64,000 nucleotides of DNA, from the NCBI GenBank assembly GCA_951406725.2, contig OX597816.1, positions 100,006,001 through 100,070,000 of the forward strand, given 5' to 3'. Positions within the stretch are counted from its first letter, which is position 1. Each line of letters begins with the position of its first letter. The position numbers and the translations under genes are program-made. Below the pieces are notes generated by a model that saw only the letters and a list, made by a program, of their open reading frames with translations, did not search any database and had not been told where the DNA came from. The DNA comes from Octopus vulgaris. Its lineage: Eukaryota. Shown here piece after piece: positions 1,301 through 34,060 of the stretch.

Positions 1301-1616
1301 TAGGTATATATATGTATATATATATGTATATATATATGTATATAGGTATATATATATGTATATAGGTATATATATATATGTATATAATAGAAATATTAAA
1401 ATTACTAAGTCTCTCTAAAAGAGATTACAGCAGCGTTACTGGAAATTAATTGTTATCGCCATATTAATATGGCAGTCTTATAGATATAAGACTAAAAGCT
1501 GTCGCTGATTAGCTCCATGAGGCCATCGCCTTAAGATAGCTATTTGATACACAAACTGTATCCATTATAACCTTCAAACAAGGGAGGTCAGCCACTTCAT
1601 ACTGCTAGTCAGACAG

Positions 1617-1657
1617 CTACAGACACGTTTCAGGGTATTTGCCCTTTGTCAATGTAG
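1617..1657 (-). ncRNA. Minimal type I hammerhead ribozyme (degenerate core)
   Basis: Minus strand: CUACA-UUGACAA-AGGG caaaua CCCU-GAAAC-GU-GUC-UGUAG. Stems I and II pair; the CUGANGA core has two substitutions. Confidence 0.7.
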
Positions 1658-2146
1658 CGTAGTCGACCCAGCAGGTGTCGCCACTGATCGTCTCTGTTCG
1701 AAGGTTTTATTTACCTAGTTTCGGTGGAATACATCCACTTGTTTTCAATAATAGAAATATTAAAATTACTAAGTCTCTCTAAAAGAGATTACGGTGGCAG
1801 CGTTACTGGAAATTAATTGTTAACACCATATTAATATGGCAGTCTTATAGATATAAGGCTAAAAGCTGTCGCTGTTTAGCTCCATGAGGTCATCGCCTTA
1901 AGATAGCTATTTGATACACAAACTATATCCATTATAACCTTCAAACAAGGGAGGTCAGCCGCTTCACACTGCTAGTCAGACAGCTACAGATGCGATAACA
2001 ATTAATTTCCAGTAACGCTGCCGTAATCTCTTTAGTAATTTTAATATTTCTATTATTGAAAACAAGTGGATGTATTCCACCGAAACTAGGTAAATAAAAC
2101 CTTCGAACAGAGACGATCAGTGGCGACACCTGCTGGGTCGACTACA

Positions 2147-2187
2147 CTACATTGACAAAGGGCAAATACCCTGAAACGCGTCTGTAG
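2147..2187 (+). ncRNA. Minimal type I hammerhead ribozyme (degenerate core)
   Basis: CUACA-UUGACAA-AGGG caaaua CCCU-GAAAC-GC-GUC-UGUAG, with palindromic stem III ACGCGU and a GUC cleavage triplet. Confidence 0.75.
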
Positions 2188-2535
2188 CTGTCTGACTAGC
2201 AGTGTGAAGTGGCTGACCTCCCTTGTTCGAAGGTTATAATGGATACAGTTTGTGTATCAAATAGCTATCTTAAGGCGATGGCCTCATGGAGCTAATCAGC
2301 GACAGCTTTTAGTCTTATATCTATAAGACTGCCATATTAATATGGTGATAACAATTAATTATATGTATATAGGTATATATATATATATATATATATATAG
2401 GTATATACGTATATATGTATATAGGTATATACGTATATATGTATATAGGTATATACGTATATATGTATATAGGTATATACATATATATATGTATATAGGT
2501 ATATACATATATATATAGGTATATACATATATATA

Positions 2536-3277
2536 TGCTGAGGGTTGGATACAAGCCTTCTTTTGAGGTGGTGAGTTATCATGCTTCCATTGCTTCAACT
2601 GGACTTTAGTCTCAAGATCGTAGCGATGGACCCATGTTTCATCCTGAGTGATAAGTCGGTCGAAGATGTCCTTGTTTTCTTGACACATTGCCAAAAGAGT
2701 TTAGGAGCAATTGACTTGTTACTGTGTCTGAAAAGGTGTGAGCATCCAGGAATCCATTGTGCAGGCAACTTCTGCATGTGCAAATGGTCGTGAATGATTT
2801 TTTTTCCATGGACCCTACACTTATCTTCACTTCTTGGGCTAGTTGCTGAATAGTTATGCAGATTTTCCAAGATAGTGGTTTCAACTTTATGGATGGTGTT
2901 GTCATCAATGGCAGAATGTGGTCATCCAGAAATAGGAGCGGTTTCCACCAATGTCTGGCCAATTTGAACTGGCGATGCCAGTACTTGATTACATTGTATG
3001 ATCATGCATCATCACCATAAACTTCTTCCATCTCATCAAAAGTCTCTTTTGATGTACACCCTTTCAAATATAAGAACCTGATCACTGGTCTGCATTCAAC
3101 TGCTTCCATTATAACACCTTAGTCCACTTCAGTATTCATAAAGGACAAATGAATTCTAGTGGAAAGCTACAATTTACAATGTGACATGTACAGCCATGTA
3201 TGGTTATACCTGTACAAGTTTTGTTTCCTGCAATAACTGGAAGTGGGTCAAGGAAAATCTTCAATGAACACCTCTTG
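2536..3277 (-). mobile_element. mariner transposon 5' half, frameshifted
   Basis: Minus-strand fragments ITIQQLAQEVKISVGS and [31 protein letters not shown] (first catalytic D motif). TA|CAAGAGGTGTTCA TIR at 3277. Truncated by (TA)n at ~2536. Confidence 0.88.
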
Positions 3278-3981
3278 TATATATGATACATCTGCAACAG
3301 TCTCAAGTACTAAATTTAATTTATTTAGTCAATTTATGTATGCAGTAATAGCTAAAATCTTTGGGTATACACCATAGAAAACTGAACTCTGCTAACACTT
3401 CAGTAATCCACACACACACACATGCATGCTTGCACACAATGAGCTTTTGTACACTTTCCAGCTATCAAATTTTATGCATACAGAATTGGTTGGCCTGAGG
3501 CTATAGTAGAAGATACTTTCCAAGATGTCACTCTGTGACATCTTAGAGCTAACCCTCAAAGGTATCTCACATCATCTCTTCTACATGCATTAACTCTTGA
3601 GTCATTACTGCGGAAATATAGTGGTGCTTAGCATATGTGGACAATGTTACTATAATAATGTTGGGCACCACAGAGGTTCAGGTGTTTAACAGTGTTCTGG
3701 AGGAATACAAGCTTGGGTAAGTCACTAGATAGGCAAGACTGTGTCTGTAGCCAGTGGGAAGAACTTGAAACCATGTAACTGTGAAGTATAACTCTTCATT
3801 ACACAACCATATCTGTGCCCATTATATTTGTAAAATAAAATTATTCTCTCCCAAGGTTTCATCTATTCTTATACACACCATTTATTGCTTTAATAAATAT
3901 CTCTGTTGCGACTATATAATATTTGTAGTTTCTTACCAATTGTCCATAAAATGATATTATTTGTGTTTCTTTTACTTTTAG

Positions 3982-4006
3982 GTAAGTCTTCTTGAATATG
4001 AAGCAG
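3982..4006 (+). other. Putative 25-nt micro-exon / recursive splice site of an unidentified host gene
   Basis: An AG-free zone (3929-3979) and polypyrimidine tract end in TTTTAG, followed immediately by GTAAGT. A second consensus donor CAG|GTAAGT lies at 4007. Confidence 0.5.
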
Positions 4007-31790: not shown

Positions 31791-33706
31791 TCATCATCAT
31801 CGTTTAACGTCCGTTCTCCATGCTAGCATGGGTTGGACGGTTCGACCGGGGATCTGGGAAGCCAGAAGGCTGCACCAGGCTCCAGTCTTATCTGGCAATG
31901 TTTCTACAGCTGGATGCCCTTCCTAATGCCAACCACTCCGTGAGTGTAGTGGGTGCTTTTTACGTGCCACCTGCACAGGTGCCAGGTGAGGCTGGCAACG
32001 GCCATGGTCGGATTGGTGTATTTTATGTGCCACCGGCACGGAAGCCAGTCGAGGCGGCGCTGGCATCGGCCACGAGTCGGATAGTGCTTTTTACGTACCA
32101 CCAGACCAGGAATCCTGGCTGGTTCAATTTGATTTCGATTTCGCTTGCCCCAACATGTCTTCGCAAGCAAAGGGGGTTGGCATGGGTGCCTGTTGTCGGA
32201 TGAGGTTCTATATCGACTTCACTTGCCTCAACAGGTCTTTGTGTCGAAGGGAGGAAAGGCATGCATAAGTGGGCTGGGCTCACTTGTCCTGCCTGGTCTT
32301 CTCACGTACAGCATATTTCCAAAGTTCTCGGTCTCTGGTCATTTCCTCAGTGAGGCCTAAAGTTCGAAGGTCGTGCTTCACCACCTCGTCCCAGGTTTTC
32401 CTGGGTCTACTTTTTCCACGGGTTCCCTCAACTGCTAGGGATTGGCACTTTCTCACACACCTATCTTCATCCATTCTCGCCACATGACCATACCAGCGCA
32501 ATCGTCTCTCTTGCACACCACAACTGATGCTTCTTAGGTACAACATTTCTCTTAAGGTACTAACGCTCTGTCGAGTATGTACACTGACATTACACATCCA
32601 TCGGAGCATACTGGCTTCATTTCTCACGAGCTTATGCATGTCCTCAGCAGTCACGGCCCATGTTTCACTGCCATGTAGCATGGCTGTTCGTACACATGCA
32701 TCATACAGTCTGCCTTTTACTCTGAGCGAGAGGCCTTTAGTCACCAGCAGAGGTAAGATCTCCCTAAACTTTGCCCAGGCTATCCTTATTCTAGCAGTTA
32801 CGCTTTCAGCGCACCCACCCCAACTACTGACTTGGTCACCTAGATAACGGAAGCTATCAACTACTTCTAGTTTCTCCCCCTGGAAAGTGACGGAAGTTGT
32901 TTTCTGCAGATTTTTGGAGGTTAATGCTCCCGAGCATCTGCCACATACAAAACTATCTTCCCAGTTAGCCTACCTTTGACATTGCTGCACCTCTTATGTG
33001 TCCATAGCTTACACTGTGTACATCTTATAGAGTTTCTACCTACACCTTTTCTACAGATCGAGCAGGGCCATCTTCCTGAAGACATTTGTGGATTGTCTAC
33101 CTTCCTACTTATTAGTACTTTGGTTTTAGCTAGGTTGACTCTAAGGCCCCTCGATTCTAAACCCTCCTTCCACACCTGGAACCTCTCCTCCAGTTCTGAT
33201 AGTGACTCAGCAATTTGAGCAAGGTCGTCAGCATAGAGGAGCTCCCAGGGGCAACCTGTCTTGAATTCCTCCGTAATTGCCTGGAGGACTATGATAAATA
33301 GGAGGGGGCTGAGTACTGAACCCTGGTGGACCCCAACCTCTACTTTGAATTCTTCTGTGTACATGTTGCCAACCCTAACCTTACTTACGGCATCTCTGTA
33401 CATGGCTTGCACAGCCCTCACCAGCCATTCATCTATCCCTAGTTTCCTCATTGACCACCAGATAAGGGATCGGGGGACCCTATCAAAGGCTTTCTCCATG
33501 TCAACGAAAGCCAGGTACAGGGGCTTATCTTTGGCTAGGTATTTCTCCTGCAGCTGCCTTACCAGGAATATAGCATCAGTGGTACTTTTCCCTGGCACGA
33601 ACCCAAACTGCATCTCATCTAAACTAACTCTCTCTCTAATTAGTTGGGCTATGACCCTCTCCGTAACCTTCATTACCTGATCCAACAGCTTGATACCTCT
33701 GTAATT
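31788..33706 (-). mobile_element. Young RTE-clade LINE, 5'-truncated
   Basis: ORF segments 32921-33706 (RT with LLYADDL, PHD-like finger) and 32280-32744 are separated by a single 1-nt deletion near 32950. Followed by a 3' UTR and (GAT)n tail. Confidence 0.96.
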
Positions 33707-33751
33707 ATGTATATATATATAGGTGCATGTCATAGTGTTTATGGTATTCCC

Positions 33752-34060
33752 TAGTGGCTTGGGTATTTGGATCATGATCTTAAGGTCGCAAGTTCAATTC
33801 TCAGCAGTGTGTTGCATCTTTGAGAAAGACACTTTATTTCACATTGCACCAGTTCACTCAGCTGGTAAAATTCAGTAGTACTTGTATTTCAAAGGGCCAG
33901 ACTTGTCTCATTCTGTATCATGCTGAATCTCTCTGAGAACTATGTTAAGGGTATGCATGTCTGTGGAGTGTTCAGCTACTTGCACGTTAATTTCGTGAAC
34001 TGACTTTTCCACTGATTGGGTCAACTGGAACCCTTGTCGTCATAAGCAATGGAAGGCCAT
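33752..34060 (+). mobile_element. tRNA-derived SINE (second family, decayed)
   Basis: TAGTGG...AAGTTCAATTC box pair followed by a CTTTGAGAAAGACACTTTATTTCAC body typical of tRNA SINEs. Confidence 0.6.

Follow-up and report, generated by a model that had tools for sequence, protein, structure and literature searches.

The closest described systems to the repeat reported here are the metazoan non-LTR retrozymes (Cervera & de la Pena 2020, PMC7229834), for example those of Mytilus with units of 350–390 bp. RNA circles have been shown for the retrozymes of coral, mussel and axolotl. Retrozymes are already known from molluscs and the class itself is not new. The hammerheads of axolotl HHR_Amex1 and newt satellite 2 cleave poorly as monomers and efficiently as dimers (PMC7229834), and a palindromic helix III is described as a requirement of this double-hammerhead cleavage (PMC4209133, PMC7229834). 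The enzyme that moves animal retrozymes is still treated as a hypothesis (PMC7229834; 10.64898/2026.07.22.740005).

Hammerheads also occur in Penelope-like elements (PLEs), whose insertions are marked by a partial tandem, an inverted 5′ copy, a bias towards (TA)n and a target duplication that cannot be read (10.1101/2021.04.23.441226). The purified PLE protein of the anole cleaves AT-rich DNA on both strands and extends both, starting at an internal position of the RNA downstream of its hammerhead; unprocessed RNA is the main substrate and hammerhead cleavage is not needed for insertion (PMC11167929). In Octopus vulgaris, 31 recently active PLE families have been reported (PMC13282606).

The window, the whole 64-kb stretch of O. 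vulgaris DNA that was analysed, contains a short array of a repeat that, judged from its sequence, is probably a decayed insertion of a many-copy non-coding family working as a non-LTR retrozyme with a canonical U3:A8 type I hammerhead. Alignment of 1384–1623 with 1748–1990 gave a direct repeat with 95 % identity and a period of 364 (367 where 3 nt are inserted), and the inverted copy (1992–2360) aligned with 1444–1822, again at 95 % identity, in agreement with the first-pass annotation of a 364-bp monomer in a tandem and inverted array. The direct part (1384–1994) measured 611 bp, which corresponds to the ~1.7 units claimed there. Read on the minus strand, it begins with 3–6 nt belonging to the remnant of a second hammerhead (1983–1994, minus strand; the 3′ strand of helix I, with C17 at 1989 and a C-to-T change at a CpG at 1991), continues with a unit-length monomer of 367 nt from cut site to cut site (1622–1988, 39.8 % GC) and ends with a 3′ partial monomer (1384–1621), whose 238 nt run from the cut site up to the TA tract, where the outer end has a 3-nt ATA overlap.

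At the head-to-head junction the direct and inverted parts have a GCG microhomology in common (1992–1994), as had been noticed before, and the tandem runs to 1991–1994, 5′ of the predicted cut at 1989/1988 and so at the 3–6 nt from it that had been given. The inverted copy (plus strand) is, as described earlier, a full, circularly permuted monomer; it has a 16-nt terminal redundancy (1992–2007 and 2345–2360) and an 11-nt deletion, and its outer end is reached 178 nt downstream of the cut. Both ends of the array sit in one compound (TA)n microsatellite, the insertion target, with its left portion at 1301–1383 and its right portion at 2361–2536. The sequence at 2361–2371 is identical to 1376–1386 and could be an 11-bp target duplication, but it is uninformative because the same word is present five times in each flank. 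The longest stop-to-stop frame within 1384–2360 was 66 aa, consistent with the reported lack of an ORF, and the repeat unit has no LTR. No further copies were found elsewhere in the 64-kb window. The inverted arms (1444–1772 with 2032–2360, 329 nt, 98 % identity) would give a long double-stranded RNA in a read-through transcript, a possible substrate for editing or for small-RNA production, and a possible short exon at ~3980–4006 suggests that the region may be intronic.

A generic hammerhead descriptor that allowed any paired positions 3 and 8 detected two complete type I hammerheads in the window, with U3 at 1652 (minus strand) and 2152 (plus strand). When applied to dinucleotide shuffles of the monomer it matched none of 3000 with helix I of at least 5 bp and helix II of at least 4 bp, and 2 of 3000 at looser settings. 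The first hammerhead (1615–1661, minus strand) consists of an internal loop UAC (1661–1659), a 6-bp helix I (1658–1653/1621–1616), a core of U3 (1652), U4, G5, A6, C7 (1648), A8 (1647) and A9, a 4-bp helix II (1645–1642/1635–1632) closed by A10.1:U11.1 with CAAAUA as loop 2, GAAA at 1631–1628, and a helix III of 1–2 bp (ACGUGU) in which the palindrome is broken at a CpG. The GUC lies at 1624–1622, with C17 at 1622, the predicted cut at 1622/1621 and U1.7 at 1615. In the hammerhead of the inverted copy (2143–2189, plus strand; U3 at 2152, A8 at 2157, C17 at 2182, predicted cut 2182/2183) the palindrome ACGCGU is intact and helix I has 5 bp after a CpG change at 2146, so that each hammerhead in the window has one CpG defect. 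The direct part includes only one complete core, as all that its second copy retains is the 3′ strand of helix I with the cut site. The conserved core letters U4, G5, A6, A9, G12, A13, A14, A15.1, U16.1 and H17 are present in both copies.

With a helix I of 6 bp, a helix II of 4 bp and a loop contact, the motif is canonical in the sense of the metazoan geometry defined in PMC4209133, rather than the minimal PLE motif, and the long helix II and missing loop contact of the latter are not features of this repeat. The Schistosoma contact (IL1.U1, IL1.C8 and L2.A6; PMC2632901) is matched here by U1.7, by CAAAUA and by the internal-loop UAC on the 5′ side. The earlier description of a minimal hammerhead in each complete unit was right in that two complete hammerheads are present, but the canonical helix lengths and tertiary loops do not fit the term minimal.

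The first-pass annotation had also read both cores as UUGACAA instead of CUGANGA, and the only departures from it are at positions 3 and 8, which form a base pair. The Watson–Crick pair 3:8 is present as U3:A8 in both copies and the usual C3/G8 letters are absent. The suggestion that the copy may be inactive for this reason is not sustained, as the swap is natural, reported active and the norm among the contigs of the family. Position 3:8 covaries to U3/A8 in several natural hammerheads, with activity in vitro (Perreault et al., PMC3088659), and ~1,300 U3-A8 motifs have been reported in the S. mansoni genome (PMC4209133). At the sequence level, the core base pair of the repeat family is swapped rather than lost. 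The second departure is A10.1:U11.1, which stands where the closing pair of helix II is usually G:C.

A search of Rfam gave no match to a hammerhead family at the gathering score or at E≤10, only AT-repeat noise. The Rfam models presumably favour the C3/G8 letters, and the miss therefore counts only against membership of an Rfam family. The exact core pattern had no matches in metagenome and viral contigs, and a degenerate form had 2, 0 and 2 matches in three contig searches. These four were rejected as relatives, as none forms helix I or resembles the monomer; one (L001) looks, in our reading, like a copia-type fragment.

Like the retrozymes of PMC7229834, the octopus repeat has a non-coding unit of ~365 bp (150–450 bp in the class), a GC content under 45 %, a canonical type I hammerhead, tandem copies, a highly paired predicted circle, many copies and a mollusc as host. 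All of the retrozyme features that are testable at the sequence level were found, and we provisionally include it among the metazoan non-LTR retrozymes; the earlier label of retrozyme-like agrees with the unit size, GC content, lack of an ORF, tandem copies, hammerhead and many copies. It differs from the described retrozymes in its family-wide U3:A8 and A10.1:U11.1, and in having the full Schistosoma-type loop contact, which is mostly missing from the mussel motifs (PMC7229834). Its inverted copy lies head-to-head in (TA)n, whereas the word ‘inverted’ occurs 0 times in the main text of PMC7229834.

Other hammerheads resemble that of the octopus repeat in part. Axolotl HHR_Amex1 and newt satellite 2 have the same one-pair helix III capped by a palindromic tetraloop, together with a contact between loops 1 and 2 (PMC7229834), but differ in core pair, sequence and phylum. 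Sm-alpha of Schistosoma mansoni has the same loop 2 (CAAAUA), the same 5′ U in loop 1 and the same 3′ UAC ending in an extrahelical C, and differs in the core 3:8 pair, the closing pair of helix II and helix III (PMC2632901). The Cercyon PLE hammerheads of S. mansoni contain the same U3-A8 swap but are minimal, with a helix II of 7–8 bp and an ill-defined loop 1, and are heterogeneous, mostly single and linked to PLEs (PMC4209133), while the octopus motif is canonical and lies in a short self-closing monomer.

The repeat family was examined using contigs from 4 of 24 listed sequencing runs (X1, X4, X14 and X8) aligned to the monomer at 1440–1806. These runs carry three organism labels and come from four studies, and one may be the source of the window itself. 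None of the listed runs is on record as RNA, and X8 as RNA is a guess only. In the run search 20 of the 24 rows, from 10 studies, contained part of the stretch. Contigs aligning at 80–100 % likeness over 367 bp numbered 2222 in X1, 1839 in X4, 602 in X14 and 102 in X8, counts that show many copies but are not a copy number. Variation was read per site, depth-weighted, from short contigs, for the best-supported 40 of 61 variant rows. Among these 40 rows, no variant was found at the C3/G8 sites (1652 and 1647) in any of the four runs, which makes U3:A8 the family norm, though a minority C3:G8 form may exist beyond them. Of 16 listed variable sites in 1604–1674, none fell at the 12 core positions (p 0.034) or at the 19 core-plus-contact positions (p 0.003), and the free position N7 varied in 59–78 % of depth.

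The variable sites in helix I, two per strand, are partners. At the pairs 1655:1619 and 1658:1616 both members vary, and the substituted letters are again complementary (A2.3:U1.3 to G:C and G2.6:C1.6 to U:A; 1/135 by a simple count). The dinucleotide of loop 3 is GC, AU or UA, all self-complementary (p about 0.007–0.03). Its frequencies match between the two sites, and per run the three forms together make up 1.00, 1.02, 1.06 and 1.00 of the depth. Phase was inferred from such matching frequencies, which is good for loop 3 and loose for helix I. Each form keeps A15.1–U16.1 a perfect palindrome. A palindrome kept through three dinucleotides, with no listed variation at the catalytic positions, fits the pattern expected under selection for dimer cleavage, and its persistence is genetic support for the double-hammerhead model.

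Folded as a circle, the monomer is predicted to be 64 % paired (z −4.75, 60 shuffles), but self-pairing cannot alone pick the strand because the opposite strand scores −6.6. A long predicted rod (1570–1705, minus strand) has the hammerhead at its tip, and its pairs 1576–1699 and 1594–1681 are G:U in the window copy and G:C in the family majority. The outer pair of a small predicted hairpin (1475–1492, minus strand) shows a two-sided change at 1475:1492 from C:G to A:U, at equal depth, in one X8 contig. Predicted pairs were broken on one side at 8 of 38 listed variable sites, which counts against this picture.

Both the cut site and position 1748 are spanned by contigs carrying 5–19 differences relative to the window, and 1791–1794 is strongly joined back to 1440. 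Other copies are thus arranged head-to-tail as well, and the monomer sequence closes on itself without a gap. Just 0–5 % of the aligned contigs ran on into unlike sequence, and among 24 of 393 loose ends no long unrelated sequence was found besides TA repeats, although a junction with a PLE ORF might escape notice because short contigs end at branch points. In X8, two contigs carry an apparently independent junction with TA repeats, of another repeat text, at 1748, the position that corresponds to the left end of the insertion. Contig depth on the monomer had its peak near 1700–1790 and its minimum over the hammerhead, and cannot rank the parts. No shared start or end points were listed, but contigs cannot reveal ends. 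On 1524–1631 one contig variant (depth 1357) dominates X8, with letters that are rare in X1, a DNA run with the same organism label (1597C 73 % versus 0 %, 1611C 80 % versus 4 %). Such a variant might come from an expressed master locus or a small number of expressed loci, or else from another individual.

Under the retrozyme reading, tandem copies would be transcribed on the minus strand of copy 1, and neighbouring hammerheads would pair via the palindromic helix III (A-C-N-N′-G-U) and cut after GUC. The released ~365-nt monomers would then be ligated into circles, as for the coral, mussel and axolotl retrozymes. Among predicted Xenopus retrozyme dimers, only 1 of 9 cleaved in vitro (10.64898/2026.07.22.740005). 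The fullest version of this account, an octopus family with fixed U3:A8 and A10.1:U11.1 that cuts only as a dimer, yields ~365-nt circles from a few masters and is inserted into (TA)n by a Penelope enzyme that uses the circle as template and primes on both strands of the target, is a tentative proposal that we place below an even chance.

If the T at 1991 is counted as a mutated CpG, the direct part extends 3–6 nt beyond the predicted cut. On that count the template did not end at a cleaved 5′ terminus but ran across the site, as either an uncut multimer or a ligated circle. The post hoc chance that one breakpoint falls within 6 nt of the cut is ~0.033. The other end of the head-to-head junction is ~160 nt from the cut, and three other listed strand-switch joints (1594/1783, 1598/1671 and 1661/1711) are all more than 20 nt away from it; one such breakpoint in eight has a chance of about 1 in 4 by our arithmetic. 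The near-cut stop is one case and other inversions in the family break elsewhere, so that the ribozyme-processed, possibly circular template of the first-pass annotation is no more than a possibility. Private non-CpG changes numbered 5 in copy 2 and 1 and 0 in the other copies (p about 0.05). This difference slightly favours several RNAs or a heterogeneous multimer as template over repeated laps of one circle.

The copies differ by ~2–5 %, with many of the changes at CpG sites. The broken palindrome of copy 1 weakens the predicted self-duplex to −3.1 from −7.5 kcal/mol, and the inverted copy has lost the pair 2.6:1.6. An ‘active’ retrozyme locus has been defined by two complete tandem motifs (Li, Clavereau & Pollet 2026, 10.64898/2026.07.22.740005). 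The two complete cores here are in opposite orientation, no two consecutive tandem units have complete hammerheads, and the locus was not filed as active. Because the cores face opposite ways and each has a CpG change, the window locus would probably release circles poorly. It is probably a CpG-decayed dead end for reasons other than its UUGACAA core.

The array has the partial tandem, inverted 5′ copy and microsatellite target of a PLE insertion, and the unresolvable duplication is also as in PLEs (10.1101/2021.04.23.441226). As in the PLE insertions of PMC11167929, it has two different outer ends downstream of the hammerhead. The array differs from these in having no ORF and in outer ends that are 60 nt apart, against a 30–40-nt tail, and its start points, at 178 and 238 nt, are farther beyond the cut than those of the anole element, at about 85–92 nt (PMC11167929). 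From the partial tandem, the head-to-head inversion and the TA target we infer a Penelope-type insertion. In such an event the two strands of the TA tract would both be nicked by the reverse transcriptase/endonuclease of a PLE, and a cDNA would be started from each strand at an internal position of the RNA, one 238 nt and the other 178 nt past the cut site. Copying of a multimer or circle would carry both cDNAs beyond unit length, and they would be joined head-to-head via the GCG. Oppositely primed cDNAs and a GCG junction would explain the layout of the array. No ORF with a reverse transcriptase and a GIY-YIG domain was found beside the array (11 window frames scanned, three with RVT_1 and none with GIY-YIG), and no helper PLE for the family was identified among these frames.

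These same features could arise if the unit were the pseudo-LTR of an autonomous PLE and the locus a 5′-truncated PLE insertion with no small-RNA cycle of its own. A partial tandem with an inverted copy in (TA)n is a PLE signature, the U3-A8 swap is known in PLE hammerheads of S. mansoni (PMC4209133) and Xenopus retrozymes are related to pLTRs (10.64898/2026.07.22.740005). We regard this as unlikely, as the hammerhead is canonical here and mostly minimal in metazoan PLEs (PMC4209133), the monomer closes on itself in other copies, few contigs (0–5 %) enter unlike sequence, with no long unrelated sequence besides TA repeats at the 24 loose ends listed of 393, and GIY-YIG was present in 0 of the 11 frames. 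Somewhat less probable still is a retrozyme-derived repeat with a dead or very slow ribozyme, amplified as an unprocessed multimer with the hammerhead kept as a structure, for example as a protein-binding site. The two consensus departures (U3:A8 and A10.1:U11.1), the template that passes the cut site, the differences of copy 2 from the other copies and the ability of the anole PLE to insert without hammerhead cleavage (PMC11167929) would all suit it, but helix III remains palindromic in all three dinucleotide forms and no variation is listed at the catalytic positions.

The GCG microhomology at the junction and the low-complexity flanks would also be expected if DNA repair had locally duplicated and inverted a unit of satellite or minisatellite type, without an RNA step. 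The short array within a microsatellite, the matching 1748 end joined to TA repeats in other contigs and the covariation of the RNA structure all argue against this, and we consider it very improbable.

With the locus read as a retrozyme insertion, its new aspects are the swapped core in a canonical retrozyme hammerhead, the PLE-type footprint and, probably, the cephalopod host. No report of a cephalopod or U3-A8 retrozyme was found in a literature consisting mainly of non-subscription sources and, for PMC7229834, of the article apart from its supplement. Within the same mainly non-subscription scope (and PMC4209133 apart from one file), none was found of family-wide U3:A8/A10.1:U11.1 in a canonical retrozyme hammerhead, nor, again in mainly non-subscription literature, of a PLE-type footprint of retrozyme insertion. 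The words ‘ribozyme’ and ‘retrozyme’ occur 0 times in the main text and readable supplement of the 2026 octopus repeat annotation. As this swapped-core family is invisible to Rfam here and would be missed by descriptors that require CUGANGA, retrozyme counts may be low, and swapped-core retrozymes would, if the reading is true, be a layer overlooked by censuses of both kinds. Tandem-plus-inverted footprints would likewise be direct genomic evidence of Penelope elements moving retrozymes, and this hypothesis is testable in a genome with many copies and active PLEs.

Several other features were seen in the window. The sequence at 797–1300, which adjoins the TA tract of the array, starts with TC after A, ends with CTAG before T and has a GC-rich hairpin at 1273–1288; we take it to be a non-autonomous Helitron-like element. 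Remnants of a Tc1-like transposase (1–375, on the left) and of a mariner-like transposase truncated at the TA tract (2537–3280, minus strand) were recognised by eye from their translations and had no Pfam match. A sigma-70 promoter scan, which uses a bacterial model irrelevant to a eukaryotic host, gave hits at chance level. LINE-type frames belonging to two sequence families, presumably RTE-like and CR1/L2-like, lie at 32283–33793, 47983–49005, 54090–55409 and 57240–58181. RVT_1 was detected in the first three of these and a PHD-like match in those at 32283–33793 and 57240–58181. For one nearby LINE protein, the highest identity to a named entry among 120 matches listed, 83 %, was to Octopus vulgaris, and an entry labelled as a bacterial MAG matched at 80 %. 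A 63-bp tandem repeat is attached to LINE-associated sequence at 50500–50781 and 56895–57089, and a tRNA with a GAA anticodon (63631–63703, minus strand) is located between (TA)n tracts.
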